This document shows positions 25,094-55,087 of a stretch of 64,000 nucleotides of DNA, piece by piece. The position numbers were made by a program, and so were the translations under genes. The notes under the pieces are model-generated. The model saw only the letters and a program-made list of their open reading frames with translations, did no database searches and was not told the origin of the DNA. Location: IMG/VR virus record IMGVR_UViG_3300027666_000001. One strand, given 5' to 3'. The first letter of the stretch is position 1; each line of letters opens with the position of its first letter. This DNA comes from a virus.

Positions 25094-26041
25094 TCACGCG
25101 ATTCCCGTGGTCGCGGGCAGGAGGTACTTCTCCTCCCACGAGTAGAGCAGGTCGTAGTACCTGCTTCCGAGGTGCCGGGCGCGATGTGGCCTAGGCAGCT
25201 CGGGGATACACAAATGGTAGCAGTCCTCACCGTTTCTAGGGACGGGAGTCGCAGTGAAGATGTTCTCCTTCAGGAGCATTTCCGGGAACAGATCGCGGAC
25301 CCACTCCTGGCCGTAGACGTACGGCGCCAGCTCCACGTCCCGCTCGCTCGCCATGCCCTGCCAGAACATCTGGTCCTCACGCGAACGCACCGACAGGGTG
25401 TCCAGGTCGGGGCCGACCGGCGTGAACTGCACGCCGCGCGAGGGCTCCAGGAGAACCACCTTCGGGACGCCCGTGAGCCGCGAGGCCATGGCCTCGGGCA
25501 CGCCCTTGTCCCGGACGATGTCGGCCGCGAACAGCCGGAAGGCGGTGTCGCCGCGCGTCGCCGCCTCCAGGGCCAGGTGCACCACCCGCATGTCGCACGA
25601 GCCGAGCACTCGCGTGGCCTGCATTCCCTCAGGCCGGACCATCCACTTCTGGCAGGTCGCCGATGACAGCTCGGTCATCTCCTCGAAGAAGGAGGAGCTG
25701 AAGAGCATCAGTGGGCTGAGCAGGGTCACCGCCGCCAGCCGACGCCGCCTGCTCCACCTGCGGCGGTTCACGTGGGCCCACCAGGTGAAGGAGAGGATCT
25801 GCCCTCTCTCCGCCGGGCTGTACACGTGGAGCAGGTCGACGTCGGCCGGGTTGGTGTTGTACGGGCTGCGGAAGACGGTCCGGTTGGGGGCGTCCATGAC
25901 GCGCTCCACGGCCCTCACGAGGTGTGGGAAGCGGTGCAGTGAGGGAACGAGCATCCTGGCCCGGGAGACGCGCTCCTGGGGCGTTCCGTAGCGGTCCCCG
26001 GGCGGCCTCCCCGGCGGGCGCCCGGTCGGCTTTCGGGCCAC
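25094..26041 (-). CDS. hypothetical protein (315 aa)
   Basis: GTG 26041 behind CCGGAGGAAGC SD. High GC3 except the last 40 or so codons. Confidence 0.65.
   Translation of the reverse strand: MARKPTGRPPGRPPGDRYGTPQERVSRARMLVPSLHRFPHLVRAVERVMDAPNRTVFRSPYNTNPADVDLLHVYSPAERGQILSFTWWAHVNRRRWSRRRRLAAVTLLSPLMLFSSSFFEEMTELSSATCQKWMVRPEGMQATRVLGSCDMRVVHLALEAATRGDTAFRLFAADIVRDKGVPEAMASRLTGVPKVVLLEPSRGVQFTPVGPDLDTLSVRSREDQMFWQGMASERDVELAPYVYGQEWVRDLFPEMLLKENIFTATPVPRNGEDCYHLCIPELPRPHRARHLGSRYYDLLYSWEEKYLLPATTGIA
25188..25197. promoter_or_regulatory. GGCCTAGGCa operator-like palindrome (site S1)
   Basis: 9/10 match to GGCCTAGGCC, 109 nt upstream of the polymerase start. Embedded in the rare-codon 3' end of the upstream ORF. 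A second CTAG site lies at 25232-25240. Confidence 0.45.
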
Positions 26042-26053
26042 GCTTCCTCCGGG

Positions 26054-28339
26054 TCAGCTTCGCGCGATCGGTACGTACCGCACCCTTCCGCGTTCCATCG
26101 TCTTGTGAATCAGGCCCGCCTTGGCGAGCACGTGCAGGTCCGACTCGATGTCCCTCTCCTGGATCTTAGAGCGGAATCGCGAGTAGATGTCCTGCTCCGT
26201 AACACCCTCCTTCCGTGCCTGGATCGCGGTGAGGATTTCGTTCTGCCGGGCCGCCCATTCCGAGTGGAGAATCTTGCCCGCGACGCGCGCCGTCGAGCGG
26301 TACCACTCCTCGGTCAGGTGCATCGCCTTCAGCAGGTGCGGCATCCGCACGATCTTCTCCCGCTCGGACATCGCGATGAGGACGGCCATCTTCATCATCG
26401 AGTCGCCCATGCGCGAGGTCGTGGGCAGCAGCACTTCGGCCAGCTCGTGCTTGTCGGCCGCCGCGTACAGCTCCCACTTGGCCTTCTGGAGGCGGCGCCA
26501 GGTCGGGTCGTCGAAGGGGATCATCACCGTGTCGCCCGGCTTGGTCTCCTCCATCCAGAAGGCCCGCGCCGCGAACATGTCGTTGAGCAGCCCCTGGCGC
26601 ATCACGTCGTCGGCCGGGGTCTGGCCGTCGAACTGCTCGGTGAACATGCCCTCCTCGGTCATCGGCGGCGGGTCGGCCTCCGCGATGAGGAAGCGGGCCA
26701 AGTGGCCGGACTGGTAGTCGCCGATCGTCAGGTGCTCGGTGACCTGCTGGAGCGTGCCGCACAGGAACATCAGGAAGTTCGTGCGGATGACCGACAGGTC
26801 GCGGTCCTCGTGCTCCTTCAGGTTGCCGACGCGCAGAGCGATCCGGACGCGGCCGGTGAACAGCTCCGTCATGTGCTCGCGCACGCCCGCCAGGTACCGC
26901 TTCGCCGCCTGCTCGTACAGCAGACCGTGGGCCTCATCCCGGTAGAACACCGAGGACCGGCCGTTGCGGTCGGGGAGGATGACGCTCAGGGCTTCCGACG
27001 TGACATCGGAGCCGAGCAGGTACGGGAAGGTGTCGTTGGACAGCTCGTCCAGGAAGTCGACCCACATCATCATCGCGGTCGTCTTCCGGGCCCGGGTGGT
27101 CGGGCCGAGGATGAAGAACCACAGGGTCAGGTTCGTGTCGAACTTCGTCGGGCACTTTCCGAACTCGCCCAGCACGGTGGACAGGACCGTCGCGGCGCCC
27201 GCCCGGTGATAGCAGGACGGGGCGTCGGTGCGCGTCTCGGCCCACTGCTGATACCGGTCGACGAAGGTGTCCATCGGGACACGGTCGCGCTCCTCCGGAA
27301 GAAGGATCGAGACGGCCTCGGCGAAGTCGGCGAGCTTCTTCTCGGGGTTCTCCTCGCTCTCGTCGGCCTCCTTGCGGAAGCCGATGTCGGAGAAGCTGTT
27401 GCGCTTGGGCTGGTTGTCGGGGTGGTCGTACGCCTTGCAGAGCTGCTGCCACAGCTCTTCCTCGGGACGGCCGTCGATCTTGTACTTGTTGCACTTCGCC
27501 GACCAGCCGATATGCATGGCCGTGATGCGGGAGACGTTCAACCGCGACAGCAGACTGAGCAGCTTCCACAGGGTCTTCGAGCGGTCCTGGTCCGGCTTCA
27601 GGTCGGCCGCGTACAGGTCGTGGACTTCCGGGCTGGAGCGGAAGACCTCGGCGGACTCGCGGATCGACTGCTGCGAGAAGTACCAGTCGGACTTCGGCGG
27701 CATGTCGCTGGCGACGCTCGGCCGGTCCTGCGTACTGTAGGGAGGATAGGCGCTGACCAGCGCCTTCATCGTGTACGTGGCGCCCATCTTCGGCTGCGGA
27801 ACCTGCCAGCGCGGACGCCCGTGCCGGGAGTACTTGTTGTTCGCCGTGCCCGGCACGCGCAGGAGCTGGCCCGCATCCCAGCCGCTCGGGTCGCATCCGT
27901 CGCGGGTGTGTTCGGCGGCGATGGCCCGGGAGATGTCGATGAGCTGCTGCGGATCGTCGGTCTCGGTCACCCAGTACAGGTGATGGCGCCCCTCGGACGT
28001 CTCGACGACCATGGTCGGCTCGACCTTGAGGCGGTCCAGCGGAAGCGTGTCGGCGTCGGCGTACGCGGCCCACTGGTGGGCGATGTTGTTGCCCTTGCGG
28101 CTGCTCCTGGTGCGGAACAGGGCAGGGACGGTGTAGACGTCCTTGTCGCTGCTTCCCAGGCAGAAGGCAACGAGGTCATCGCGCTGCGACGGCCACGCGA
28201 AGAAGGTGGTCTGCGTCGGTCCCGTCTTTTCGTCCGGGTCGTATATGCCGCCCGGGAACAACGAGATCGCGACGAAGCCCAGATCCTTTCCGTCGTCATT
28301 GATCTTCGGAAAGAGGGTGTCGAAGAAGACGAAGCTCAC
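26054..28339 (-). CDS. bifunctional DNA primase/polymerase with C-terminal DUF3987-like P-loop helicase domain (761 aa)
   Basis: Prim-pol motifs ADADT, SEGRHHLYW and LRVPGTANNKY. P-loop-like LGPTTRARKTT. GTG behind GAAAGGGAGGG SD. Confidence 0.75.
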   Translation of the reverse strand: MSFVFFDTLFPKINDDGKDLGFVAISLFPGGIYDPDEKTGPTQTTFFAWPSQRDDLVAFCLGSSDKDVYTVPALFRTRSSRKGNNIAHQWAAYADADTLPLDRLKVEPTMVVETSEGRHHLYWVTETDDPQQLIDISRAIAAEHTRDGCDPSGWDAGQLLRVPGTANNKYSRHGRPRWQVPQPKMGATYTMKALVSAYPPYSTQDRPSVASDMPPKSDWYFSQQSIRESAEVFRSSPEVHDLYAADLKPDQDRSKTLWKLLSLLSRLNVSRITAMHIGWSAKCNKYKIDGRPEEELWQQLCKAYDHPDNQPKRNSFSDIGFRKEADESEENPEKKLADFAEAVSILLPEERDRVPMDTFVDRYQQWAETRTDAPSCYHRAGAATVLSTVLGEFGKCPTKFDTNLTLWFFILGPTTRARKTTAMMMWVDFLDELSNDTFPYLLGSDVTSEALSVILPDRNGRSSVFYRDEAHGLLYEQAAKRYLAGVREHMTELFTGRVRIALRVGNLKEHEDRDLSVIRTNFLMFLCGTLQQVTEHLTIGDYQSGHLARFLIAEADPPPMTEEGMFTEQFDGQTPADDVMRQGLLNDMFAARAFWMEETKPGDTVMIPFDDPTWRRLQKAKWELYAAADKHELAEVLLPTTSRMGDSMMKMAVLIAMSEREKIVRMPHLLKAMHLTEEWYRSTARVAGKILHSEWAARQNEILTAIQARKEGVTEQDIYSRFRSKIQERDIESDLHVLAKAGLIHKTMERGRVRYVPIARS

Positions 28340-28379
28340 CCGCGTCCCTCCCTTTCTCGTGCGACTTTCCGGACGCAGA

Positions 28380-28443
28380 ACGGGCGGGACCCCGGAAGGC
28401 CCCGCCCGTCATGAACCGGGCGGATAACCGATCGTATCCGCCC
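28380..28443 (-). terminator. two tandem hairpins between the 411-aa gene and the primase gene
   Basis: 28380-28409 has a 12-bp stem with one mismatch. 28418-28443 is GGGCGGATA-8 nt-TATCCGCCC. Confidence 0.5.
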
Positions 28444-28460
28444 AGCTCATCTTGTTGCGA

Positions 28461-29696
28461 TCAGAGGTTCTTGGCGCCCGCGAACTCGTCGAGCCCGCCA
28501 CCCTCGCCCTCGTTGTCCTTGGCGACCTCCGTCCACTGGGTGCCCAGCCAGACGGCGGTGATCGTCTTGCCGGTCATGTCGCCCGCGCCCGCGCCGAGCA
28601 TGACGTCCACGAACACGCCCGGCGTCTTGTCCTGCGCGATGGCGCCGACCGTGCCCCAGGTGATCTCGCCCTTGACGGTGTTGCCGTTGCGCAGCTCGAC
28701 CTCGACCTTGCGCTCCGGCACCGGCAGGAACTTGGTCTTCAGGTAGTCGGTGGTCTGCGCGTAGTCCTCCATCAGCGGCGCGGAGTTCTCGCCCCGGTCC
28801 GCGATGGCGAAGACCCGGTCGTCGACCTTGACCAGCAGCTTCTCGTTGCCCTCCCACACCTGGCCGGAGCCGTCGTTGAGGATGTAGCCGGTGCCGTCCT
28901 GCGGGGAGAAGACGGTGACCGGGGCACCGGTCTCCGGGTCCACCAGCACGTTGATCGGCTGGTTGTTGCCGTCGAGACGCGGGCGGCTCTTCGTCTTCGT
29001 GGACAGCGAAATGCACGCCATCACGATCTTGCCCTCGATGCGCTTGGCGATCTCCGGCATGGTCTTCAGGCTGACCTTCTCACCGGGCTGCGTGGCGCTG
29101 GCGGCGACGCGCAGGGTGCGGCCGTCCTCGTTCTTGTAGCCCTTGCGGCCGGAGCGCTGCTCCTTGAAGAAGGCCGTCTTGATCGTGAGCGCGGGGCTCT
29201 CGATCTCGTACGGGTACCGGCGCTGGCCGAACTCGGGGGCGACGTGGTTGGCCTCGCAGATGAAGTAGGGCAGCTCCATCTCGGTGACGACCTCGGTGGC
29301 GCCGGTCTGAAGCGCGGCCTCGACCTGGTCGAACGGCACGTAGACGCGCTTCTTGCCGTCGTCGCCGACCTTCACCGCGACGCAGACCTTGGAGGAGAGG
29401 CGGGGGGTGTGCTTCTCCTTGAACTCGGCGACGGAGATCCGGATCGGGACCCACATCTTGTCCTTCAGGCCGACGTCGAGCGGGTTGACGTAGGTGTTGC
29501 CCGCCTCGTAGACGCGCACCTCCTCGTCGGACTCCTCCTCCTCCAGCTCCATCTCGGCGCCCGCGAAGAGGTCGTCCAGCTCGGCGTCCAGGTCGACGTT
29601 CGCGAGGACGTCGTCGGCCGGGGCCGCGTCGTTCACGTCGGCACCCTGGGCACCCTCGGGCTGGTTGAACGGGTCGAACTCGGCGTTGTCGCTCAT
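28461..29696 (-). CDS. hypothetical protein with acidic N-terminus (411 aa)
   Basis: High-GC3 ORF between the RecT-like and primase genes. Function unknown. Confidence 0.7.
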   Translation of the reverse strand: MSDNAEFDPFNQPEGAQGADVNDAAPADDVLANVDLDAELDDLFAGAEMELEEEESDEEVRVYEAGNTYVNPLDVGLKDKMWVPIRISVAEFKEKHTPRLSSKVCVAVKVGDDGKKRVYVPFDQVEAALQTGATEVVTEMELPYFICEANHVAPEFGQRRYPYEIESPALTIKTAFFKEQRSGRKGYKNEDGRTLRVAASATQPGEKVSLKTMPEIAKRIEGKIVMACISLSTKTKSRPRLDGNNQPINVLVDPETGAPVTVFSPQDGTGYILNDGSGQVWEGNEKLLVKVDDRVFAIADRGENSAPLMEDYAQTTDYLKTKFLPVPERKVEVELRNGNTVKGEITWGTVGAIAQDKTPGVFVDVMLGAGAGDMTGKTITAVWLGTQWTEVAKDNEGEGGGLDEFAGAKNL

Positions 29697-29727
29697 GGTG
29701 TTCTTGTCCTTGTCCTTGTGGTCCGCG

Positions 29728-30885
29728 TCAGTTGCGGAGGGAGTTGACGATGGATTCCAGGTGGAGGCTCAGCGGTGCCGAGGCATCGCCCTGGACCACC
29801 ACCTCGTCCCCCTTGCCCGCCTCTCGCGCCGCTTCCTGAATGGCGTAGATGCGGGAGATCTTGTCGTCGACAGACGCGCTGTCGTCGCCGGTCATGCGGG
29901 TGGCCCAGTCGGCGAGCTGCTGCGGGGTCCCCTTGTCGACGGCCTTGCGGGCTGCGTCGAGCATGACCTTCTGCTTCTTGCTGCCGCCCTTGGTGACGTC
30001 GATGACCTCACCCTGGATCGGCACGCCTTCCTCGTTCACCTCGGCCCCCAGCTCTTCGGGGGTGTAGGCGGCGGAGGCCATGGCCAGATGGTCGTGATCG
30101 TCCTCGGAGAGGGACAGGCCCATCTCGCCGAGGATGTTCTTGACGCCGAGGATGACGTCGATCGCACCGTCTCGCACCACACCCGACTTGGCCCGGCTCT
30201 TCAGCATCTCGGGGCCGTAGTTCTGCCAGGTGCTCTTGGAGTTGAGGCCGATCTGGTTGGCTCGCGCCATCGACCACACGGACTCGAACCGGACCAGCTT
30301 GGACAGGTCGAAGTTCGTGGTGGAGATGGATTCGCGCAGCTCGTCGAAGTTGTACTGCCCGTGCAGGGCCGCGATCTGCTTGCGCAGGGCCGCGATCTCC
30401 TCGGGGGACGCATTCTCGTCGAACTCGGCAAGGGCTCGGATGTCTTCGATGCGCTCCAGGATCTGGCCGCGCTGCATCCTGTACAGCCGGTCCATGTCCT
30501 CCAGTCGGGCCAGCTTCTGGCGCCGCTCCTCCTCGCGCATCCGCTGGAAGCGCTGGAGGTCTTCGTCCGACGTCTTGCGCACCAGGACGGCGGTCGCCTT
30601 CACGGCGTTGCCCTCGATGTGCACGGTGTGACCGGCAGCGACGGCGAGCGCCTGCATCAGGTGGGCGCTCATGCCCGCCTTCAGGCGGCCCTTGCCGTCG
30701 GGGAAGACGAAGATGTGCTGGAAGGAGGACATCGGGTCGATGCCCAGGGCGGCGCCGAAGCGCATCATGTACTCGGCGGAGGCTGCATCACCTGCGATGT
30801 GCTCCGGCATCAGCTTCGACTTCGACAGCCGCGCTGCTTCGGCGGGATCCACCTCGCCGGTTGTACGACGGACAAGCTCAGTCAT
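29728..30885 (-). CDS. RecT-like single-strand annealing protein with coiled-coil insertion
   Basis: FGAALGIDPMSSFQHIFVF and WQNYGPEMLKSRAKSG resemble RecT family blocks. Paired with an upstream exonuclease. ATG 30885. Confidence 0.55.
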   Translation of the reverse strand: MTELVRRTTGEVDPAEAARLSKSKLMPEHIAGDAASAEYMMRFGAALGIDPMSSFQHIFVFPDGKGRLKAGMSAHLMQALAVAAGHTVHIEGNAVKATAVLVRKTSDEDLQRFQRMREEERRQKLARLEDMDRLYRMQRGQILERIEDIRALAEFDENASPEEIAALRKQIAALHGQYNFDELRESISTTNFDLSKLVRFESVWSMARANQIGLNSKSTWQNYGPEMLKSRAKSGVVRDGAIDVILGVKNILGEMGLSLSEDDHDHLAMASAAYTPEELGAEVNEEGVPIQGEVIDVTKGGSKKQKVMLDAARKAVDKGTPQQLADWATRMTGDDSASVDDKISRIYAIQEAAREAGKGDEVVVQGDASAPLSLHLESIVNSLRN

Positions 30886-30955
30886 GCGTGCCTCGTTTTC
30901 AGTGCTTGTTCTTGTGTCGTTTTTGGTTCGCGTGGTGTCGTGTTCTTGTGTCTCC

Positions 30956-30988
30956 ACTCTACCACTATTTAGCCGCGCAGCCTAGGCC
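30956..30988 (-). promoter_or_regulatory. promoter-like TAGAGT -10 with aGCCTAGGCC palindrome at the -35 position (site S2)
   Basis: On the minus strand, GGCCTAGGCT is followed 17 nt later by TAGAGTGGAG, 71 nt upstream of the RecT-like start. Confidence 0.45.
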
Positions 30989-31811
30989 GAATCGAGCACG
31001 GGAAGCACTCGGGGTGGGCCGTCAACTCACCGATCTTGCCGGTGCGCACGAGAGAGGCCAGGTGGGCGGCCCTGTTGATGACGCCCTGGGCCACGTCGGG
31101 CCGGTAGGCACAGGAAGCCACCCAGATGTCGCTCACGTTGTTCGAGTCCCGAGGGATGAACGCGAGGACAGCGTAGTCCGCTTCGCGCCCCATCGCCCGC
31201 AGTCCGTACAGGTACAGCATCGTCTGGCCCATGTACTCCGACGGCACGCCGCCCGAGTGCTCCTCGGAGCGCGACATCAGCATGACCATCCGGCCCAGGT
31301 CCGCCTCGGTGAGCAGCCCGGCCCGGTCCATCGCCTTGAGCTTGGTCAGATCCTCGCGCTCCGGCGCGGTCAGCCCGTGCACGTAGGCGCCGGGGCCAGC
31401 CTGGGTCTGGTACTTCTTCAGCTTCTTCAGGTCGGTCGTCTTCCAGTCGACCAGGGTCTTCTTGCGTGGCAGGAACACGTCCACGTGGCCACGCACCAGG
31501 CCGATGCCAGGAATCTGCGCCACGTCCACAGTGATCTCCTGCTCGGCGTGGGCGTACACGCTGGGCAGGTCGCGCTCCAGCTTCTCGTGCACCGCAGTGC
31601 CGAGCCACGCCTTCAGGCTGAACCCCCGCTCGGTGTGGGAGCCCATACCCAGTGAGGCGGCGATCTTCCGCGCCACGCAGAGATCGCACTTGTCGGCGAG
31701 ATCGCTTGGACCGGGAGCCCGTTGCTTGTCGCGGGTCGATGGCCGGGTGATGGTGGCCACCGCGATTCCTTCGACGAAAGTGCGAATATTTTCCTGATCT
31801 TCTGCTGTCAT
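30969..31811 (-). CDS. PD-(D/E)XK exonuclease, RecB/Cas4-like with Cys cluster (280 aa)
   Basis: GHVDVF...LVDWKT matches the D..(D/E)xK core. N-terminal CDLC and C-terminal CFPC cysteines. Confidence 0.65.
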   Translation of the reverse strand: MTAEDQENIRTFVEGIAVATITRPSTRDKQRAPGPSDLADKCDLCVARKIAASLGMGSHTERGFSLKAWLGTAVHEKLERDLPSVYAHAEQEITVDVAQIPGIGLVRGHVDVFLPRKKTLVDWKTTDLKKLKKYQTQAGPGAYVHGLTAPEREDLTKLKAMDRAGLLTEADLGRMVMLMSRSEEHSGGVPSEYMGQTMLYLYGLRAMGREADYAVLAFIPRDSNNVSDIWVASCAYRPDVAQGVINRAAHLASLVRTGKIGELTAHPECFPCSIRPRLRG

Positions 31812-31820
31812 GTCGCAACC

Positions 31821-32528: not shown

Positions 32529-32544
32529 GGCCGTATCCTGACAT

Positions 32545-32585: not shown

Positions 32586-32598
32586 TGCGGCCGGAGGA

Positions 32599-41116: not shown

Positions 41117-41117
41117 C

Positions 41118-43609: not shown

Positions 43610-44241
43610 TGCTCGTACTTCCTCGTCTTCTGCTCGATGATCTTCACATAGTTGTACGTCTCGCAGCGGGCGAACGAACACGGCGGAACGCCGTTGTACT
43701 GCTGCACCCGGAAGCCGCCCGCGTTGTACCCGGCGAGCATGTTCTTCCAGGTGGGTCCCGGAATGTCCTTGAGTCCCTTCGCGAGCTTGCAGTCCAGGCT
43801 CGCGGCCGACGGGATCGCGTCCTCGGGGTCGTACTTGTTCCGCTTGCCGTCCCCGTTGGCGTCGATCCCCTCGGTCGCCCAGGTTCCGTCGATGAACTGA
43901 GCCATCCCCTTCGCGGAGGCCGGAGAGTCCAGGCGCCCGTCGATGACCTCGGGCTTGAAGCCCATGCTTTCCTGGTCGAGCTGGGCCGCGAGAAGGGCCG
44001 GGGTCAACGTCTTGCACTTGTTGCCCCACTTGTTGATCAGCTCCTCCCAGCGCTTCTTCGGAACCGAGCCGGGCTTGATCGGTGCGGAGGTGCCGGTGAA
44101 CTTGTAGTCCTGGCTGGCCTCCTGCTTCGGGGGTGCCGCGACGGACGCAGCAGACGGGACCGCCGGAATGAAACCGGTGACGGCCTGAACTGCTCCAACC
44201 GCGAAAAACACACCGACGAATGCTCCGCCCGCTCTGCGCAT
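43606..44241 (-). CDS. secreted lytic transglycosylase (SLT domain, 211 aa)
   Basis: ATG 44241 behind GGAGAAGGGAGGAAC SD. N-terminal TM/signal. Motifs QESMGF, AKGMAQF and AGYNAG. Confidence 0.7.
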   Translation of the reverse strand: MRRAGGAFVGVFFAVGAVQAVTGFIPAVPSAASVAAPPKQEASQDYKFTGTSAPIKPGSVPKKRWEELINKWGNKCKTLTPALLAAQLDQESMGFKPEVIDGRLDSPASAKGMAQFIDGTWATEGIDANGDGKRNKYDPEDAIPSAASLDCKLAKGLKDIPGPTWKNMLAGYNAGGFRVQQYNGVPPCSFARCETYNYVKIIEQKTRKYEQ

Positions 44242-44266: not shown

Positions 44267-44304
44267 ACTCTAACATTGACCTAGGCCAGCCAACAAGGCG
44301 AACC
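44267..44304 (-). promoter_or_regulatory. promoter candidate TTGTTG-18-TAGAGT with GGCCTAGGtC palindrome in the spacer (site S3)
   Basis: The minus strand reads GGTTCGCCTTGTTGGCTGGCCTAGGTCAATGTTAGAGTGGAG, 26 nt upstream of ATG 44241. Confidence 0.5.
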
Positions 44305-46317: not shown

Positions 46318-46371
46318 GCCACCCTCTCTTCGGTCTCTGCTGGCGTTGTGGAGTCCAGCATGACACAATAC

Positions 46372-46381
46372 GGCCTAGGCC
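46372..46381. promoter_or_regulatory. perfect GGCCTAGGCC palindrome in divergent promoter region (site S4)
   Basis: Lies 24 nt upstream of the regulator start (46405) and 55 nt upstream of the leftward start (46317). Confidence 0.55.
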
Positions 46382-46404
46382 ACAAGCGAACGCGAGGAGA
46401 AAAA

Positions 46405-47139
46405 GTGAGCGAGCAGATTCCCAAGTACCGTGCCATTGCGGCACATTACCGATCCAGGATCACCTCTGGTGAGCTGGCGCCGGGTACTCCGCTGGAGTCG
46501 CGCCGCAGGCTCGCCAAGACCCACAAGACGTCGCGCGTCACCATCGACAAGGTCGTGGAACTGCTGACGGCTGAAGGGGTCCTGGAGCCGTCCAGCGGCA
46601 ACCGGCCGCCCGTCGTGGCGGACATCTCGGGCCGCACGGCCACGGTTCAGGACCGGGTCGGGAACTACGCGGCAAGCGGCCGGGCGCTCGGCGCCCGGGA
46701 GACCTCGGAGATCCTTCGGGTCGAGACGGTTCCATGCCCTGCCGAGATCGCCACCGCGCTGGGGGTCGAACCGGGTGAGGGCGTCGTCTACCGGGAGCGC
46801 CTGAACCGGATCGACGGCAAGCCGGTCGCCACCGGGCACTCGTACTACCCGCCCGAGGTGACGGCCGTGACCCCCGAGCTGGCGATGGCGGAGGCCACGC
46901 CGCGCGGTTCGCGCGAGCTGGCCGCCGAGCGCATGGGATCCCGACAGAAGGACCTGATCCCCGTCATCACGTCGCGACTGGCGACCGACCGGGAGCGGGA
47001 GCTTCTGGAACTCAAGGGCGCGTACGCGATCGTCACGCAGACGGCACGCCGGGTCCTGCTGGCCAATGGCAAGGTCGTCGAAGTCGCGGTGAAGGTCTGC
47101 GAGGGCAACCGGCCGGTCTCGTTCCACGTGCCCCTGTGA
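46405..47139 (+). CDS. GntR-family transcriptional regulator (HutC-like, UTRA-type C-terminal domain, 244 aa)
   Basis: GTG behind AGGAGAAAAA SD. N-terminal IPKYRAIAAHYRSRITSGELAPGTPLESRRRLAKTHKTSRVTIDKVVELLTAEGVL matches the GntR wHTH pattern. Confidence 0.75.
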   Translation: MSEQIPKYRAIAAHYRSRITSGELAPGTPLESRRRLAKTHKTSRVTIDKVVELLTAEGVLEPSSGNRPPVVADISGRTATVQDRVGNYAASGRALGARETSEILRVETVPCPAEIATALGVEPGEGVVYRERLNRIDGKPVATGHSYYPPEVTAVTPELAMAEATPRGSRELAAERMGSRQKDLIPVITSRLATDRERELLELKGAYAIVTQTARRVLLANGKVVEVAVKVCEGNRPVSFHVPL

Positions 47140-48783: not shown

Positions 48784-49094
48784 GAGACGGGCCGGAGCGG
48801 CAGGGTCGCGCTGTAGGCGACCAGGTACTCGTAACGCCACATGGAGTGTTCGCCGTCGTCGGTTCCGGTCTCGACGATGGTGGCCTCCTGGATGCGGTAC
48901 GCCATGCCGAGCCGGTCGCGGTAGAGGGCACCCGTCGGAAGCATCGGAATCGTCGGGTGCTCGCGACCGCCCTTCGGCGAGATGGTGATCAGCGCATGCC
49001 GGATTTCACTCTCCGGGTCGTCGTCCATCATCGGCTGGATCACAACGTAATTGGCGGATCCGGTTCCTCCGGATGCCTCGATTCGCCACGCCAT
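48780..49094 (-). CDS. hypothetical protein (104 aa)
   Basis: ATG behind AGGAGAGGAGAATGAC SD. Confidence 0.65.
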   Translation of the reverse strand: MAWRIEASGGTGSANYVVIQPMMDDDPESEIRHALITISPKGGREHPTIPMLPTGALYRDRLGMAYRIQEATIVETGTDDGEHSMWRYEYLVAYSATLPLRPVS

Positions 49095-49150
49095 GTCATT
49101 CTCCTCTCCTAGTCAACACAGCCAGAATACAGGCAAGTTGGGGAAAACAG

Positions 49151-49176
49151 GAAGCCCCCGCCGGAGCGGGGGCTTC
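49151..49176 (-). terminator. rho-independent terminator
   Basis: GAAGCCCCCGC-4 nt-GCGGGGGCTTC followed on the minus strand by CTGTTTTCCCC. Lies 18 nt after the stop at 49194. Confidence 0.7.
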
Positions 49177-49193
49177 TCTGCCGTGCGGGCTTG

Positions 49194-50354
49194 TCAGCCC
49201 TGGTTCATCCAGCTCGCGAGACCGTTCTCGACGAACCACTCCAGCGGGAAGGCGGTGGTCGCCTCGGTCACCCGGGGGGCGCCCGTCTGGTTGGCCTTCG
49301 CGAAGGCGGCCTTGGTGATGCCGCCCTCGGCCGCGTCGGCGGCGTAGTAGCGGGCCGCCAGGTTCACCTTCCGGCGCTCGGCGTCGGTCAGGTTCAGGCC
49401 GTCCAGGCTGATGCCCTCCGCGTCGTCCTCCTCCTCGAAGGAAACGCCGCCCTTGGTGAGCTGCGGCCGGGAGACCTGCCCCTGGATGACGTTGAAGCCG
49501 AGGTCCAGCGGAGCCCGCAGACGCAGTTCCTGCTCGGCGTCCATCCGCTCCAGGCTGATGCCCTGCTGGCTGCGCAGGGTCTCGATCTGGAGTCGCGCGT
49601 TGAGCTGCTGACGCATCAGCTTGGTCTCGGCCTCGCCCTCCAGCTTGGCCTTCTCCAGTTCGAACTGGGCCTGCTGCTCCAGCTTCTTGCGCTCGATCTC
49701 GGCCTGGACCTTCTCGTGCTCGATGGCCGCCAGGCGCCGCTGCTCAGCCAGGGCCGCCTCGTGCTCGCGGTTCTTCAGGATCATGTCGGCCTCGTGCTGC
49801 TCGGCGGTCGCCTCGGCGTCGGCCCGGGTGAGGCGGGACTTCCGCTTCTTCGCGGCCATCTGCGCCTTCTCGTCGTCGGTCAGGTCGCTCGGGTCCTTCA
49901 GGCCGTTCAGGGCCATCGTCCACGTGAGCTTCGTGAAGACCGGGAGGACCGCCGCGAACCCCGCCGCGCCGCCGCCGATCGTCGTTCCGTGGTAGCCGAG
50001 CAGACCGGCGACGAACAGGGCCTCGACCCAGCCGATGACCGGCAGGAAGTCGAAGGGCTTCTTCCTCTTGGGCAGCTTGCCCATCAGCTTCTGACCCTGG
50101 TACTGGGCCACCATCGTCGCGCTCCAGACGACGTCCATCGTCGCGGCGGCCGAGAGGGAGATCAGGCTGAGCCCGCCCAGCTTGTCGATGGTGAGCGCGT
50201 CGACCTTGTACAGGTCGATGAAGGACCAGGTGCTCCAGGCGAGGGAGCCGATCGAGAGGATGCTCGCCATCAGAACCAGAACGGAGAAACGCTTCGGACC
50301 GTCCTCGTCGATGTCGACCTTTGCGACCTTCTCGTTGTTTTCCGTCTTGTCCAT
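49194..50354 (-). CDS. membrane protein, 4 TM plus long coiled coil (DUF2637-like topology, 386 aa)
   Basis: Four N-terminal hydrophobic helices, then an EQ/K-rich coiled coil. GGGAGAAACCCAGAC SD. Confidence 0.6.
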   Translation of the reverse strand: MDKTENNEKVAKVDIDEDGPKRFSVLVLMASILSIGSLAWSTWSFIDLYKVDALTIDKLGGLSLISLSAAATMDVVWSATMVAQYQGQKLMGKLPKRKKPFDFLPVIGWVEALFVAGLLGYHGTTIGGGAAGFAAVLPVFTKLTWTMALNGLKDPSDLTDDEKAQMAAKKRKSRLTRADAEATAEQHEADMILKNREHEAALAEQRRLAAIEHEKVQAEIERKKLEQQAQFELEKAKLEGEAETKLMRQQLNARLQIETLRSQQGISLERMDAEQELRLRAPLDLGFNVIQGQVSRPQLTKGGVSFEEEDDAEGISLDGLNLTDAERRKVNLAARYYAADAAEGGITKAAFAKANQTGAPRVTEATTAFPLEWFVENGLASWMNQG

Positions 50355-50419
50355 GTCTGGGTTTCTCCCTTTCCGAAAACCCCCGGTTTTGGAAACCTCG
50401 CTTGGGGGCGTTAGGCATG

Positions 50420-50449
50420 ACTGTGCCAGCGTGGCCTAGGCCGTGTCAA
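50420..50449 (-). promoter_or_regulatory. promoter candidate TTGACA-18-CACAGT with perfect GGCCTAGGCC in the spacer (site S5)
   Basis: The minus strand reads GGTTCGCTTGACACGGCCTAGGCCACGCTGGCACAGT. Palindrome at 50433-50442. Confidence 0.5.
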
Positions 50450-50495
50450 GCGAACCAGGGCCAGATTCGGGAAGTGGTCCGTTCTGTCCGAATTC

Positions 50496-50517
50496 ACCAT
50501 GATTCGAGAATCATGGT
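50496..50517. promoter_or_regulatory. 22-bp palindrome ACCATGATTC-GA-GAATCATGGT
   Basis: Perfect 10-bp arms in non-coding island B. Confidence 0.6.
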
Positions 50518-50617
50518 ACGAAGTGCCGCCCCGTCGTGCCCTCATTCGTCCGATTCGAGTGGAGAACAACCACCCTTTCTTTGGCTTCTTCCGACGGGAC
50601 GGAACCTCTTCCACGCT

Positions 50618-51049
50618 TCAGGAAGAGCGGGACCTCCGGAAGAGGCCGTAAAGGAAGCCCTTCCGTTCGCTGCGATGCCGTCCGGAAGGAGTCGGAATCT
50701 CCTCGGAAACCTGGTGACCAGCGGCGTCGGGATCGTCTGCCTCAATTCGTCCGGTTTCGTCTTCCAGAACCTGCTCGGAAGGGGGGTCGATTGCGGTCAG
50801 GTTCAGTACGTAGACGTTCGCCCCCCGCAGGCCGGTGGCAGAGAAGCCCGGTTCGGTGCGCAGCAGTCCGCTCCGGGTGAGTTCGGCCCTGGCTCGCACC
50901 AGGGCGCCCTGCGTCAGTCCGCTGTCCTTGAGGAGGGTGGTCGTTGCCACCTGGGCCCGCCCCGCCTCGTTCACGTGCTTCAGCAGGGCGTCCAGCAGCT
51001 TTCGTGCCTCATGGCCCAGCGCGTTGCGGTCATAGGGGTTGTCGCTCAT
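50618..51049 (-). CDS. winged-helix DNA-binding protein (143 aa)
   Basis: ATG 51049 behind GGGAAAGGTGA SD. TTTLLKDSGLTQGALVRARAELTRSGLL resembles a wHTH. Confidence 0.5.
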   Translation of the reverse strand: MSDNPYDRNALGHEARKLLDALLKHVNEAGRAQVATTTLLKDSGLTQGALVRARAELTRSGLLRTEPGFSATGLRGANVYVLNLTAIDPPSEQVLEDETGRIEADDPDAAGHQVSEEIPTPSGRHRSERKGFLYGLFRRSRSS

Positions 51050-51093
51050 GCCGTCACCTTTCCCGTGATCTGTGTCGGGCATCAGCGTACGGC

Positions 51094-51127
51094 GAAGGGC
51101 CGCCAGAACATCGTCTGGCGGCCCTTC
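51094..51127 (-). terminator. 14-bp perfect hairpin
   Basis: GAAGGGCCGCCAGA-6 nt-TCTGGCGGCCCTTC, 26 nt after the stop at 51153. Confidence 0.65.
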
Positions 51128-51152
51128 TGGTAGGCCATCTCGTGTGGCCTGG

Positions 51153-52601
51153 TCATCCGGCCCAGGGGTCGTCGTTCAGGTCGCTCAGCCAGCGGCCAAC
51201 CGTGGAGGCGTCCACGCCGAGGACACGGGCGCCTTCGGCGCGGCTCAGGTGTCCCTGCTGGATTTCCCCGTGCAGCCACGCGATGACGGCGGAGCGGGCC
51301 TCCTCCTTCTCCTCGGCCGTGAAGCCGGACTTCGGAGCCTGGGAAGCGTGGTACGTGAGCACGACCATCGGGTGACGGCCGACCGGAACCTGAGACGTCT
51401 CCTGCCCGGCTTCCACGGCCTCCGTGAGAACGGGAACGGACTCGGGCGCGGCATCTTCCTGGACGGGCTCCAGGGCGGCTTCCTCCGCTTCCGGTGCGGG
51501 TTCGATGTCGGGCGCCACCACCCACCAGTCCTCATGCTCCGGCTCCGCCGTGGCCGGGTAGGGACCGGCCAGGGCGAACTGGACCTGCAACTCCCCCTGC
51601 AAGGGTTGCTGCACGGGCCCCTTCTCCAGGCTGACCTGCACGGATTCGCTTGCATCCGGGTTCTCGTGCAAGGCCGTCTGCATAGGGGTCCGCAAGGGCG
51701 TGGTGGGCTCGTCCAGAAGCAGCCCGTCATCACCCTCAGTGACGCCCGAAACATCCAGCTTCGTCCACTGTGAAGTGGCCTGCTGCATGGGCTCTTGCAC
51801 GTCGGGAATAGGCTCCTTGACCAGGGAGTATGCCGGTTCCGGACTGGCCTGCCGCGAGGTCTCATTCCGGAAGTCGTTCGTCACCGAGGCGATGTCGTCG
51901 AACGACTGGCCCGACTTGCCCTGGTCTGCGACATCCGAAGTGGCCTGCTGCACGACCTGCGGCAATACCGTTGTGGGCGCTTCCGGAGCAGTTACCGCAC
52001 GGGTTTCGGCTTCGGGCGAAATGGCCTGCTGCACCGGCTCCTGCAAATCCGGCTGTTCGAATCGCTCAGTTTCGACCGAATCTTCCGAATCGTCCCTCGC
52101 CCGTTCGGCCTCTTCGCCGGAACTCGACTCGTCCACCTGCGGGTTTTCGAGGATCTGCGTGGGGCTCTCCGGCGCAGGGTCGACGAGCGTCTTGTTCTCG
52201 TCATCCTCACTTTCCGTGATCCCCTTCGACTCCTCTCCTTCGGTTACCCACGGCTCCTCGCGGCCCAGCTTCCGCTCACGTGCAGAGAACACCGCCAGCC
52301 CGATCACCGTGAGGAGGACGGCTGCACCGAGCGCCTGCGGAACGCTGGTCGAGTGACCGCCCCGCTCCGGGCCGCCGGTCGCCGCGCTCAGGACCACCCA
52401 GATCGGAATGAGCACGATGAACGCCCGGCCACCCTTGGCCCACACCGAGCGGTGCTCGCCGTTCTCGTCCAGCTCCAGCACCCAGTTCTTGCTTCCGTGC
52501 AGCCCCCTGCGGAACATCCTGCCCAGCCCCTTGGAGCCGTTCTGGACCTCCATCGACTGCCTGATTCCCGCTGCCTGCGGGACCTTCACGCGGATCGCCA
52601 T
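51153..52601 (-). CDS. membrane protein with acidic repeat region and C-terminal HTH (482 aa)
   Basis: ATG 52601 behind GGAGATGAGGAGG SD. Two TM helices. Repeats QEPVQQAIS, VVQQATS, QEPMQQATS and GPVQQPLQ. C-terminal LSRAEGARVLGVDASTVGRWL. Confidence 0.65.
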   Translation of the reverse strand: MAIRVKVPQAAGIRQSMEVQNGSKGLGRMFRRGLHGSKNWVLELDENGEHRSVWAKGGRAFIVLIPIWVVLSAATGGPERGGHSTSVPQALGAAVLLTVIGLAVFSARERKLGREEPWVTEGEESKGITESEDDENKTLVDPAPESPTQILENPQVDESSSGEEAERARDDSEDSVETERFEQPDLQEPVQQAISPEAETRAVTAPEAPTTVLPQVVQQATSDVADQGKSGQSFDDIASVTNDFRNETSRQASPEPAYSLVKEPIPDVQEPMQQATSQWTKLDVSGVTEGDDGLLLDEPTTPLRTPMQTALHENPDASESVQVSLEKGPVQQPLQGELQVQFALAGPYPATAEPEHEDWWVVAPDIEPAPEAEEAALEPVQEDAAPESVPVLTEAVEAGQETSQVPVGRHPMVVLTYHASQAPKSGFTAEEKEEARSAVIAWLHGEIQQGHLSRAEGARVLGVDASTVGRWLSDLNDDPWAG

Positions 52602-52625
52602 GACCTCCTCATCTCCTCTCCGAGT

Positions 52626-52652
52626 GGCCCGCCGGAGCTGTTCCGGCGGGCC
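52626..52652 (-). terminator. 11-bp perfect hairpin
   Basis: GGCCCGCCGGA-5 nt-TCCGGCGGGCC lies between the stop at 52681 and the SD of the next gene. Confidence 0.55.
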
Positions 52653-52680
52653 GTTTCCACTGGTTCTTGCAGGCCACTTT

Positions 52681-52926
52681 TCAGCGGCCCTGGACCCACT
52701 TTCTGGGGTCGTTGTGATTCTCCCAGGAGGGAACCACGATCCGGTCCCCATACCTGGTGTACCCGATGTGCGTGCCCGGCGGGATGAGCCGGTTGCCCGC
52801 CGACAGGCTGCCGCACGAGAGACAGGGGTCCCCCTCCAGGCGGCCGTGCTCGCAGCGGTGCAGGTCCAGCAGCAGCTTGGCCAGACGGCTCGTTTCGACC
52901 TCCTGCGGGGTCGGCAGCTCAGCCAC
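52681..52926 (-). CDS. hypothetical zinc-ribbon-like protein (81 aa)
   Basis: GTG 52926 overlaps the upstream stop by 8 nt (GTGGCTGA). HRCEHG...CLSCG. Confidence 0.5.
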   Translation of the reverse strand: MAELPTPQEVETSRLAKLLLDLHRCEHGRLEGDPCLSCGSLSAGNRLIPPGTHIGYTRYGDRIVVPSWENHNDPRKWVQGR

Positions 52927-53128
52927 GAGCGGCTTCCAGGGTTCGATTCGAATCGGACGAACGGGTTCGAATCTCCCTGAATTCGGTGCAGGCGCAGGTC
53001 CCACGGCCCTGTGCCAGCTTGTGGCGGCAGGCCGTACGGGAGCCCTTCAGGTGCGTTCCAGTGTGTTCGTGCCGGGGGTGCCCGCACCCCGAGGGGCCGG
53101 TACAGAGCATCTTCTCGTGCAGGCTCAT
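52919..53128 (-). CDS. hypothetical Cys/His-rich protein (69 aa)
   Basis: ATG 53128 behind ACGAGGAGAAC SD. CTGPSGCGHPRHEH...CRHK...CACTEF. Confidence 0.5.
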   Translation of the reverse strand: MSLHEKMLCTGPSGCGHPRHEHTGTHLKGSRTACRHKLAQGRGTCACTEFREIRTRSSDSNRTLEAARG

Positions 53129-53151
53129 CGCGTTCTCCTCGTTCTTGCTGG

Positions 53152-53421
53152 TCAGCGCTCGGCGGCCAGCTCGCTCAGCTTCGCCGCCAGCTTCGCATTC
53201 AGGTCCAGCGCCTGCTCGTACGTCAGCTCGGCGAACAAGCCCGGGTCCTCGTCGGCCTGGAGGTCCGTCAGCGGCACCGTCAGGCGCTCGCCGAAACCGG
53301 TCTTCACCGGGCCGAAGCCGCCGATGACGATGTGGCAGCCCGGGGTCATGCTCTTGTCCACGGCCAGCCTGGCGTTCCTGTCGATGTCGCCCAGGCTGTT
53401 CAGGGCACGGATCTCGCTCAC
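53152..53421 (-). CDS. hypothetical protein (89 aa)
   Basis: GTGA overlap at 53418-53421. Confidence 0.6.
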   Translation of the reverse strand: MSEIRALNSLGDIDRNARLAVDKSMTPGCHIVIGGFGPVKTGFGERLTVPLTDLQADEDPGLFAELTYEQALDLNAKLAAKLSELAAER

Positions 53422-53753
53422 TTCTCCTCCTCGGTCCAGGTGCGTCCCAGGTAGTCCTTGTGCGGCTCCTTGTGGCCGCGTGCCAGCCCCTCGCAGGGCT
53501 CGCCGTCGTCGGGGTGCTCCGAGCCGCAGAACAGCAGGATGTCGTGCTCCGCGAAGGCGGCGACGATCGCCGGTTCCTCGTCGTACACACCCACGGTGCC
53601 CTCGGCGTTGTTCCAGCCCATCTCCGTCAGGGCCTTGATCAGCTTGGAGGCGATGCGCTGGACGGCCTCCGCGCCGATCTGCTCCTTGACCAGGAGGATT
53701 TCGTCCATGACCGGTTCGAACACGTCGGTTCCGGCCTCGTACTTGATTCCCAC
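53418..53753 (-). CDS. hypothetical protein (111 aa)
   Basis: GTG 53753 behind GGAATGAGGAGAAT SD. Confidence 0.55.
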   Translation of the reverse strand: MGIKYEAGTDVFEPVMDEILLVKEQIGAEAVQRIASKLIKALTEMGWNNAEGTVGVYDEEPAIVAAFAEHDILLFCGSEHPDDGEPCEGLARGHKEPHKDYLGRTWTEEEK

Positions 53754-53780
53754 ATTCTCCTCATTCCGATGGTTCTTCCA

Positions 53781-53811
53781 GGGGTTCGCCCTGGAATCCA
53801 AGGCGAACCCC
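53781..53811. repeat. inverted repeat GGGGTTCGCC-11 nt-GGCGAACCCC (element E1)
   Basis: Perfect 10-bp arms with loop CTGGAATCCAA. Related to E2 at 54538-54562. Confidence 0.6.
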
Positions 53812-53816
53812 CACCG

Positions 53817-54035
53817 TCACACCGTCTCGATACGGGTCACGCGGTAGAGGCCCGCGTAGATCTCGCGTGCCGCCTCCGCGTCGTCCACATCGTCCAGCTC
53901 GACCAGGAAGGTGTGATGCTCGCCCGTCACGTCGGTGCAGAGCTTGCCGTTGACCGGGCACGGGCCGGTCTTCTTCTCGCGCGGGTTGTGCTCAGGGTTC
54001 TTCGCGAGCCGTACCGTGACCAGGAACTGTGCCAT
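53817..54035 (-). CDS. hypothetical protein (72 aa)
   Basis: TGATG junction at 54035. High GC3. Confidence 0.6.
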   Translation of the reverse strand: MAQFLVTVRLAKNPEHNPREKKTGPCPVNGKLCTDVTGEHHTFLVELDDVDDAEAAREIYAGLYRVTRIETV

Positions 54036-54502
54036 CAGCCGTTCACCCGGCCGATGTAGACCTTCCGGCCGCCGTACTTGTACTCGGAGATCGGGGCGAC
54101 GACGACCTTGTAACCCCGGTAGGAACCGGAGTTGGCGTTCAGGATCTTGTCCCCGCCGACGTAGATGCCCACGTGCTTGATGTTGCCGGACGAGGTGCCG
54201 AAGAACACCAGGTCACCCTTGGCGCGCTTGCTCCACGAGATCTTCGAGGACTTGTTGTACTGGCCCTGGGCGGTGCGCGGCAGCGTCTTGCCGTTCTTCT
54301 TGTACGAGTAGTACGTCAGGCCCGAGCAGTCGTAGGCGTTCGGACCGGCGGCGCCGTCCCTGTAGGGGTCCCCCTTCTGGGCGGTGGCCGTACTCAGGGC
54401 CTTCGTCCGTATCGGAGTGGCCGCACTGGCACTGGGCGCCACGGTCAGCATGATCCCTCCCGCGAGCGCGGTGGACAGGGCGACGGTGGTGAGCTTCTGC
54501 AT
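54035..54502 (-). CDS. secreted NlpC/P60 peptidoglycan endopeptidase, second copy (155 aa)
   Basis: ATG 54502 behind AAGGAGAAGCACC SD. Signal peptide ...APSASA. DCSGL and KHVGIY motifs. Confidence 0.75.
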   Translation of the reverse strand: MQKLTTVALSTALAGGIMLTVAPSASAATPIRTKALSTATAQKGDPYRDGAAGPNAYDCSGLTYYSYKKNGKTLPRTAQGQYNKSSKISWSKRAKGDLVFFGTSSGNIKHVGIYVGGDKILNANSGSYRGYKVVVAPISEYKYGGRKVYIGRVNG

Positions 54503-54537
54503 GGTGCTTCTCCTTGGATTCCGAGATTCTTCTGGAT

Positions 54538-54562
54538 GTTCGCGATGGAATTCCTGGCGAAC
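54538..54562. repeat. inverted repeat GTTCGC-13 nt-GCGAAC with inner GGAATTCC (element E2)
   Basis: Lies in a 59-nt spacer upstream of the NlpC/P60 gene. The loop shares TGGAAT(T/C)C with E1. Confidence 0.45.
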
Positions 54563-55029
54563 TACCAGCTCATTCCTTCGGGACTGAAGAGGACGGGGAT
54601 GCCCGCTTTCCTGGCGCGCTCGACGCAGTCGGCCGTTCCGTGGGAGGGGTGTTCGCCGGGCGGACACCAGGGGCTGTTCTTCCGGCACGGGTTCGCCCAT
54701 GCCATGACGAGCTGGGCTCCGGCGCTGACCATGTCCTGGTTGCGGAGATTGCCCGCGTAGTTGCCATGGGCGTCCCAGTCGGGCAGGTAGGGGACCTCCA
54801 GGACCAGGGAGTCGTCGAAGCGCGCAGCCCAGTCGCTGAGGTACCGGTCGGCGCCGCGCTTGTTCTTGCCGTTGCGCACGAGCAGACGGCCGTGCCGCTT
54901 CAGCAGGCGAGTGACCGGAGTCCAGACCGCACTGCGGTCCGCCCAGTCTCGTGAGCCTGTTCCGATCAGCTCGAAATACGGGACGTTGAGATTCAACGTC
55001 TCTGCCGTTAGCTGCGGTTGGGCGTTCAT
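54562..55029 (-). CDS. DUF2493/SLOG-family protein (155 aa)
   Basis: GTGSRDWADRSAV...LVRNGKNKRGADRYLSDWA...PDWDAHGNYAGNLRNQDMV fits the DUF2493 pattern. GGAGGCAC SD. Confidence 0.55.
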   Translation of the reverse strand: MNAQPQLTAETLNLNVPYFELIGTGSRDWADRSAVWTPVTRLLKRHGRLLVRNGKNKRGADRYLSDWAARFDDSLVLEVPYLPDWDAHGNYAGNLRNQDMVSAGAQLVMAWANPCRKNSPWCPPGEHPSHGTADCVERARKAGIPVLFSPEGMSW

Positions 55030-55045
55030 GTGCCTCCTATCGAAC

Positions 55046-55087
55046 GGCCTAGGCCGATCCTACCCGATGGCCTACTTCTCGGGTAGG
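55046..55087. promoter_or_regulatory. perfect GGCCTAGGCC (site S6, 55046-55055) followed by 9-bp hairpin CCTACCCGA-11 nt-TCGGGTAGG
   Basis: Lies 17 nt upstream of ATG 55029. Additional GGCCTA/TAGGCC half-sites at 55069-55074 and 55084-55089. Confidence 0.5.

Follow-up and report, generated by a model that had tools for sequence, protein, structure and literature searches.

Multi-operator control systems are known from temperate actinophages, examples being the phiC31 repressor with its conserved inverted repeats and the stoperators of the Cluster A mycobacteriophages, the latter being asymmetric and orientation-dependent. DasR of Streptomyces and NagR (YvoA) of Bacillus, both of the GntR/HutC type, act at dre operators, the core of which is TGGTCTAGACCA, with T at position -3. 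In the NagR–DNA complex, Arg38 reads the guanine at -5, Arg48 reads that at -4 and the wing residue Gly69 enters the minor groove, with positions -3 to -1 contacted through the backbone only and half-sites 6 nucleotides (nt) apart (PMC4333415). DasR uses the same arginines on the same two guanines (PMC4918961; PMC13191281). The consensus for HutC is NyGTMTAKACNy (PMC4494728), and among the autoregulatory repressors of actinomycete integrative elements KorSA and SCO3932 are of the HutC type (PMC8584621). Here we describe a palindrome family and its putative cognate regulator on a 64,000-nt stretch of viral DNA, IMG/VR record IMGVR_UViG_3300027666_000001 (hereafter the window, meaning the whole stretch). 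An initial annotation, made from the letters alone, had taken six copies of a 10-mer palindrome to be the candidate regulon of a GntR/HutC-type regulator encoded beside one of them. At the level of sequence our analysis supports that reading, every computational test proposed with it having come out in its favour. We put at roughly 0.78 the probability that sites of the consensus YG(G/A)CCTAGG(Y)CR are operators of the phage regulator, which would repress the promoters that they overlap. Such a regulator-operator system is of an ordinary kind; it is new and uncharacterised for these phages, rather than new in kind.

By domain profile and structural model, the 46405-47139 product is a true member of the GntR/HutC group. 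In Pfam, the GntR domain (PF00392; a winged helix-turn-helix, wHTH) covers residues 8-65 and scores 30.4 bits against a cut-off of 27, and the UTRA (chorismate-lyase-like) domain scores 62.7 bits against 23.8. An AlphaFold2 model built with 76 homologues reaches a predicted local distance difference test score (pLDDT) of 90.8 and has helices at residues 7-21, 33-39 and 44-56. The top Foldseek matches in the PDB are the full-length GntR/HutC repressors DasR, NagR/YvoA, PhnF and YydK (E 1e-16 to 1e-13, 18-25% identity), and the effector domains of DasR, PhnF, HutC and YurK are matched with target TM-scores of about 0.7-0.86. In a HMMER alignment, Arg34, Arg44 and Gly65 fall on NagR Arg38, Arg48 and Gly69; Arg34 hardly varies across the family, and Arg44 does not vary at all within the clade whose loci bear the motif. 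The phage operator, with the half-sites T-G-G-C-C-T and A-G-G-C-C-A, has the GG-N6-CC geometry of the NagR site. A role for Asp48 (the position of DasR Arg62 and NagR Arg52) in reading the C at -3 was also considered, the sister clade pairing Asn there with A at -3; it was rejected, since the homologue P0070 has Arg at this position together with a perfect TGGCCTAGGCCA.

By megablast the window falls among large Streptomyces phages: it is 88% identical to the 200-kb genome of Frankenweenie, and its identity to JustBecause, Kela, Satis, Kradal, Quantum and EhyElimayoE is about 77-78%. These relatives are assigned to cluster BM (PMC10652959), so that the window is cluster-BM-like; a regulator identical to its own is encoded on the metagenomic viral contig IMGVR_UViG_3300023097_000002. 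Neither an integrase nor a recognised repressor is reported for cluster BM phages, and a temperate cycle has been deemed unlikely for them (PMC10652959). There is no integrase among the annotated genes. The two genome announcements of these phages (one being PMC10652959) make no mention of the motif, the gene family or the promoters, a literature search on phage-encoded GntR/HutC regulators found nothing relevant, and the PHROGs entry for the regulator family reads 'unknown function'.

The association of motif and regulator was examined among 235 homologues from a database search, the DNA around them being sampled at graded divergence from the viral collection and from bacterial assemblies. 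Co-occurrence of site and gene in relatives had been proposed as a check, and it is complete: where the residue at the NagR-Arg48 position is Arg the motif is found in 18 of 18 loci, and where it is Gln, His, Asn or another residue in 0 of 58 (Fisher P 8e-18, essentially a contrast between two clades rather than 76 independent events). In every Arg44-clade locus examined (the 18 loci together with the window, Frankenweenie and Satis) the motif stands about 22-55 nt before the regulator's own start codon, and this autoregulatory copy persists to 43-44% regulator identity and 56% G+C content. In loci of the phage clade there are usually 3-5 copies in every 20 kb, and the same orthologous promoters carry them. 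The regulators of loci L013 and L050 are as distant overall as the motif-free proteins, yet in both Arg44 and the motif are paired. The remaining homologues (32-46% identity) lie on small plasmids, in loci resembling integrative and conjugative elements (ICE-like) and on 85-93 kb pZL12-like elements, and have no motif copy; about 100 nt ahead of the regulator gene the pZL12-like group instead has another palindrome centred on CTAG, CGCTACTAGTAGCG or variants of it.

An exhaustive pattern scan of the window agrees exactly with the six positions first listed. Perfect copies of the 10-mer GGCCTAGGCC lie at 46372, 50433 and 55046, and one-mismatch copies with CTAG intact at 25188 (GGCCTAGGCA), 30979 (AGCCTAGGCC) and 44278 (GACCTAGGCC); a further one-mismatch match, at 5996 (GGCCTCGGCC), lacks CTAG and is unrelated. 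The 10-mer is thus present as described, but the predicted operator is a 12-mer palindrome, YGRCCTAGGYCR. Three exact copies of the 10-mer compare with 0.04 expected, and none of 100 dinucleotide-preserving shuffles reaches three; with one mismatch allowed there are seven against 2.6 expected, a marginal excess that 1 of 100 shuffles attains. CTAG occurs 14 times, as the initial annotation had counted by eye. Its expectation of roughly 200 holds as a mononucleotide figure (about 207), but dinucleotide-preserving shuffles give 85. CCTAGG is not enriched (six observed against 7.1 expected) and all six are members of the family, so the signal resides in the flanks and in the placement.

Full-genome scans were made of Frankenweenie and Satis, assembled from the deposited records, with intergenic and coding DNA separated by the deposited annotation. 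Frankenweenie has 60 CTAG, of which 18 stand in the context G(G/A)CCTAGG(C/T)(C/A). Fifteen of these 18 copies are intergenic, against an intergenic genome fraction of 10.5% (binomial P 1.3e-12); the motif is therefore not equally frequent inside coding regions, and from the intergenic copies the next start codon is 14-129 nt away. Intergenic enrichment of bare CTAG was rejected as evidence, because CTAG at large is 75% intergenic in Frankenweenie (45 of 60), 15 of these 45 carrying the family flanks. When the words of this genome were counted without bias, CCTAGGCC ranked first among intergenic 8-mers after Shine-Dalgarno-like words. Of the 137 promoter-capable gaps 15 carry a site, and the structural and lysis modules carry none, so that the family appears to mark a sub-regulon made up of non-structural genes, most of them leftward. 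Relatives that retain the regulator retain the sites as well: 17 of the 18 are found at orthologous places in Satis (about 77% genome identity), the one missing there being the counterpart of window 25188, near the polymerase gene. In anchored alignments of 13-15 genomes the 12-mer and the promoter hexamers form the most conserved block, and the copies before the regulator, SLT, four-transmembrane (4-TM) and SLOG genes are kept in 13-15 genomes, to about 50% regulator identity and 56-59% G+C. Rather than the six sites first proposed, the regulon would comprise about 18 CTAG-type sites genome-wide, plus a second, CCAG-centred class in relatives.

Table 1. The regulator gene and the copies of the 12-mer palindrome in the window.
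Feature	Sequence	Position	Strand	Remark
Regulator gene		46405..47139	+	244 amino acids (aa), GTG start; N-terminal GntR wHTH and C-terminal UTRA, HutC subfamily
Predicted operator	CGGCCTAGGCCA	46371..46382	.	Divergent gap between regulator gene and leftward 54-aa gene; autoregulatory candidate
Predicted operator	TGGCCTAGGTCA	44277..44288	-	-35/-10 spacer of SLT-operon promoter
Predicted operator	CGGCCTAGGCCA	50432..50443	-	Abuts -35 of the promoter of the 386-aa membrane-protein (4-TM) gene
Predicted operator	CGGCCTAGGCCG	55045..55056	-	Predicted start site of SLOG/YAcAr gene promoter
Predicted operator	CGGCCTAGGCTG	30978..30989	-	Over the -35 position of RecT-like gene promoter
Doubtful copy	CTGCCTAGGCCA	25187..25198	-	108 nt before DNA polymerase start

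Promoter hexamers were read from motif-anchored multi-genome alignments, using the Streptomyces-style -10 box TAnnnT. The operator of the regulator gene, which lies between this gene and the leftward ones as had been proposed, is 22 nt ahead of the GTG and directly 3' of an extended -10 element, TGaCACAAT (46361-46369, + strand). It also overlaps the -35 hexamer TTGTGG (46385-46380) of a leftward TTGTGG-17-CATGCT promoter, and in the loci of relatives it sits inside a nearly invariant island of about 45 nt. The SLT promoter reads TTGTTG (44296-44291), 2 nt, the 12-mer, ATGT and TAGAGT (44272-44267), followed by a Shine-Dalgarno (SD) sequence and the ATG at 44241; its -35, operator and TGT-TAnnnT -10 are kept in 14 genomes in which the flanks diverge. 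At the membrane-protein gene, TTGACA (50449-50444) is followed by the 12-mer, 6 nt and CACAGT (50425-50420). TTGACA and the operator show little or no variation across 13 genomes, with nAnAGT 5-6 nt further on, and the same arrangement recurs in L050, whose regulator is 44% identical. At the SLOG gene the -10 box TAGGAT (55062-55057) abuts the 12-mer, which is followed by the SD AGGAGG (55038-55033) and the ATG at 55029; the TAnnnT box and operator are conserved in 13 genomes, with the ribosome-binding site and start codon 13-16 nt after the operator. At the RecT-like gene the 12-mer is separated by 16 nt from TAGAGT (30961-30956), overlaps the final codons of the upstream gene and is conserved at Frankenweenie 55361 and Satis 52661. 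As in the initial annotation, 44278 and 50433 lie in promoter spacers and 30979 over a -35. The labels of the genes also hold, DNA_pol_A, SLT, YAcAr/SLOG and GntR+UTRA being confirmed and the RecT-like gene corresponding to phrog_4171. Distances to the leftward gene starts, earlier given as 17-109 nt, measure 16 nt for SLOG, 36 nt for SLT, about 53 nt for the 54-aa gene, 78 nt for the 4-TM gene, about 93 nt for the RecT-like gene and 108 nt for the polymerase.

Of the six sites before leftward units, five appear to be conserved operators. The sixth, at 25188, is doubtful, as it falls within the 3' end of the preceding coding region (25094-26041) and, though present in Frankenweenie, is replaced in the aligned Satis sequence by GGGCCTTTGGCA. 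We therefore rejected it as a conserved operator; it is probably outside the conserved regulon, and for this copy alone chance is the likeliest reading. A second CTAG (CCCTAGAAA) lies 45 nt from it, at 25233-25241 (- strand), also in coding DNA, and is kept in both Frankenweenie and Satis.

Taken together, these observations suggest a mechanism in which the two wHTH domains of a dimer would sit next to each other on the palindrome, with Arg34 and Arg44 reading the guanines at -5 and -4 of each half-site as in NagR and DasR. The operators overlap core elements of predicted host sigma-70-like promoters, namely the -35 (RecT-like), the spacer (SLT, membrane protein) or the start site (SLOG, regulator), so that the bound regulator would exclude host RNA polymerase and thereby repress. 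In this way the regulator may shut off its own synthesis and about 18 promoters of non-structural, mostly leftward genes, and, the UTRA domain being intact, some small molecule may release it from DNA. We infer each of these parts: binding itself, repression rather than activation, and the response to an effector.

Several observations weigh against this model. The 76-locus comparison is largely one between two clades, and a search of viral contigs with the membrane protein as query for syntenic relatives without the regulator returned only regulator-bearing contigs, plus one cut at a contig end. The phage encodes other helix-turn-helix proteins, and host DasR, which reads the same GG-N6-CC positions, might also bind the sites. 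The operator departs from the GT/AC pair of the HutC consensus in having GC/GC. A strict E. coli-type sigma-70 promoter scan of 43.5-56 kb found no promoter, so that the -35 and -10 assignments rest on conservation and on Streptomyces-type TAnnnT boxes. Finally, the effector pocket is kept only in part: NagR Arg133 corresponds to Arg132, but Arg135 is replaced by Asn134 and Glu145 by Gly144. N-acetylglucosamine 6-phosphate, considered as effector, is unsupported, as two of the three checked pocket residues differ.

How far could a host protein account for the sites? A HutC-type regulator of the host such as DasR might be the main binder, tying the phage promoters to an N-acetylglucosamine signal, with the phage protein having another target or competing for the same sites. 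The motif differs from the dre core at -3/+3 only. NagR side chains do not read these positions (PMC4333415), so DasR is a possible additional binder, and the two guanines that NagR reads are also those read by DasR (PMC4918961; PMC13191281). As the main explanation, however, this appears unlikely. The motif travels with the Arg44-clade regulator and holds a fixed place before its gene in each locus, whereas the motif is missing from relatives on plasmids, plasmid-prophages and integrative elements that share those DasR-containing hosts, which argues that the phage protein is the primary partner. Moreover, every site in the window, Frankenweenie and Satis has C at -3, where dre sites keep T; two near-copies in the distant locus L050 deviate.

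A different phage protein, for example a small helix-turn-helix protein, might equally read the palindrome, the GntR gene then being merely one of its targets. At least seven other DNA-binding proteins are annotated in Frankenweenie, and linked genes are inseparable by co-occurrence within one phage lineage. Nevertheless, operator geometry and the Arg/Arg/Gly triad match the HutC binding mode specifically, and a site placed just ahead of the regulator's own gene is the way autoregulation is classically arranged in the HutC family (PMC8584621). In the sister clade the reading residue and the palindrome change together, and the motif persists in L013 and L050, where most neighbouring genes differ. 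We consider this alternative distinctly unlikely.

Several copies lie only 13-16 nt before a start codon, just ahead of the Shine-Dalgarno sequence, and could be transcribed. The palindrome might therefore be a promoter element for a phage transcription factor or sigma factor, or a 5'-leader RNA element, rather than a repressor operator. Its position relative to the conserved -35 and -10 boxes nevertheless varies between -35, spacer and +1, as for an operator and unlike a fixed promoter element. At the DNA level it is a perfect palindrome, and divergently oriented gene pairs are served by it too; its RNA would form a stem of only 4 bp, and the fold of the SLOG leader has z = -1.4. No phage RNA polymerase or sigma factor is annotated, and we regard this possibility as very unlikely. 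That the copies are functionless chance survivors of CTAG depletion in G+C-rich flanks draws on the marginal one-mismatch count and on the mostly intergenic position of CTAG, but is already refuted for five of the six sites by orthologous conservation across genomes of 56-67% G+C whose flanks diverge, besides the excess of exact copies and the perfect co-occurrence with one protein clade.

Other features of the region and its relatives deserve mention. The window has, 12 nt upstream of the SLOG operator (55068-55091, - strand), a conserved box, AAGTGGCCTACC, together with an inverted repeat, GTGGCCTAC-N7-GTAGGCCA, in which the half-site TGGCCTA is reused at wide spacing; L011 and L023 have the box immediately next to the operator. 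This element could be an auxiliary binding site. An RNA hairpin or attenuator ahead of the SLOG operator was considered and rejected, the fold being unremarkable (z = -1.4).

A second operator-like class, TGGCC(CA/TG)GGCC(A/G), is centred on CCAG; it might be read by the same regulator with lower affinity or by a different protein. Frankenweenie has six sites of this class, all intergenic and embedded in promoters, and the window has none. The Frankenweenie sites are at 99533 (L002:49533-49542), 121478, 124634, 129005, 131206 and 139525 (L003 21478, 24634, 29005, 31206 and 39525). The class occurs five times in the whole of Satis, at 93257, 114800, 119597, 122257 and 130224, and all five are orthologues of Frankenweenie copies. 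Promoter layouts are the same as in the CTAG class, an example being CTGACA-TGGCCCAGGCCA-5 nt-TAATCT. Unrelated to the operator family is (C)CCTAGGG beside a G+C-rich hairpin, found in Frankenweenie at 181294, 182599 and 193629 (L004 31246, 32551 and 33581) and in Satis at 169533, 170544 and 180708; on the coding strand this context is a TAG stop codon with a terminator-like stem.

Sister-clade loci also have palindromes before the regulator gene (L025-L037; L012:3903-3920). These, CGCTACTAGTAGCG, GCGCTAGTACTAGCGC and AGCGCTACCAGTAGCGCT, consist of GCGCTAC half-sites with a TA or CA centre, and the GCGCTAC type, found in the pZL12-like elements and an ICE-like locus, is paired with His or Gln at the key helix position. 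For the distant cellular homologues in L012 and L014 no related palindrome was found. In three more distant relatives a second GntR+UTRA gene adjoins the regulator gene (L010:11023-11781, L011:6036-6770, L049:10807-11541); the window, Frankenweenie and Satis each have a single one. On L013, a phage-syntenic metagenomic contig, genes for KAS III, a short-chain dehydrogenase, an acyl-CoA oxidase, an acyltransferase and a carrier protein lie beside the regulator (10875-15479 and 18880-19520), a lipid/polyketide-type block that is unusual phage cargo.

A syntenic relative is present in an isolate assembly, on scaffold 14 (185,382 bp) of Streptomyces cucumeris NEAU-Y11 (L048:10881-12676; also L052). 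Two genes are inserted directly after its regulator gene, one for a partition ATPase of the ParA-like type (phrog_164) and one of 309 aa; no ParA-like gene is present in the window, Frankenweenie or Satis. Another syntenic relative is found on a 253-kb contig of a second bacterial isolate. The ParA-bearing relative hints at a plasmid-prophage state in some relatives. Going further, the regulator might be a metabolite-gated master switch under which Streptomyces phages of 185-260 kb lie quiescent as plasmid-like episomes, the dispersed operators forming an immunity network. This proposal, which we regard as doubtful, draws on the isolate-assembly contigs of phage-genome size, the ParA insertion, the plasmid-prophage and ICE kin of the protein and the many-operator layout, which is typical of temperate actinophages. 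If it were true, phages called strictly lytic would have a carrier or phage-plasmid state under a Kor-related HutC repressor.

The analysis identifies a probable global transcription regulator of the cluster BM phages, which have large genomes and prolate heads, together with its predicted operator, about 18 target promoters and a residue, Arg44, that tracks specificity. A ligand-binding repressor in a phage held to be lytic would mean that non-structural genes may be timed or gated by a metabolic signal. The promoter and operator map should make infection-time transcriptomics directly interpretable, and the regulator with its 12-bp site is a potential orthogonal repressor/operator pair for Streptomyces engineering.

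How, then, does this locus compare with the systems described? The nearest non-phage relatives of the regulator are the Kor-type HutC regulators (KorSA of pSAM2, SCO3932 and those of pZL12-like elements), at 38-46% identity. Their homologues on small plasmids, in ICE-like loci with SpdB and Prim-Pol genes and on the 85-93 kb pZL12-like elements form a clade separate from the phage regulators. They lack a GGCCTAGGCC site and have Gln, His or Asn where the phage protein has the key Arg of the helix, and the SCO3932 motif, AC[TC]T[AG]TT[GC][TG][GT]ACG, is unrelated to the phage operator (PMC8584621). Kor-type genes stand next to transfer and replication genes of a plasmid or ICE and their products override a kil function, whereas the window gene belongs to a phage genome and has SLT, membrane-protein and replication genes around it. 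With the HutC consensus, the phage operator G-C-C-TA-G-G-C shares the M-TA-K centre and the 4-nt gap, but GT/AC has become GC/GC.

The likeness to DasR and dre that was noted initially holds for the CTAG-centred palindrome and extends to the base-reading arginines, but not to descent, the nearest relatives being Kor-like. In common with DasR and NagR, the phage protein has the GntR wHTH and UTRA fold, the two base-reading arginines and the wing glycine. Like dre, its site is a palindrome with GG and CC six bases apart and a CTAG centre, and repression by promoter overlap, known for these regulators, is proposed for the phage. It is, however, only 20-24% identical to DasR and NagR and so is not their orthologue, and their sugar-phosphate pocket is only partly kept. 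Its operators have C, not T, at -3/+3 in every site of the window, Frankenweenie and Satis, the two near-copies of L050 being different. DasR and NagR govern amino-sugar metabolism, whereas the phage protein is phage-encoded and its proposed targets are phage genes.

The repressors of phiC31 and of the stoperator phages belong to other protein families, and those phages are temperate and have integrases; to our knowledge, none of these repressors has a ligand-binding domain. The likeness to them lies in the arrangement of the sites, a short repeated sequence at many intergenic promoter regions, the regulator's own gene included. Indeed, this dispersed-operator feature of immunity repressors is present here, the 18 copies in Frankenweenie including one at the putative repressor's own gene.

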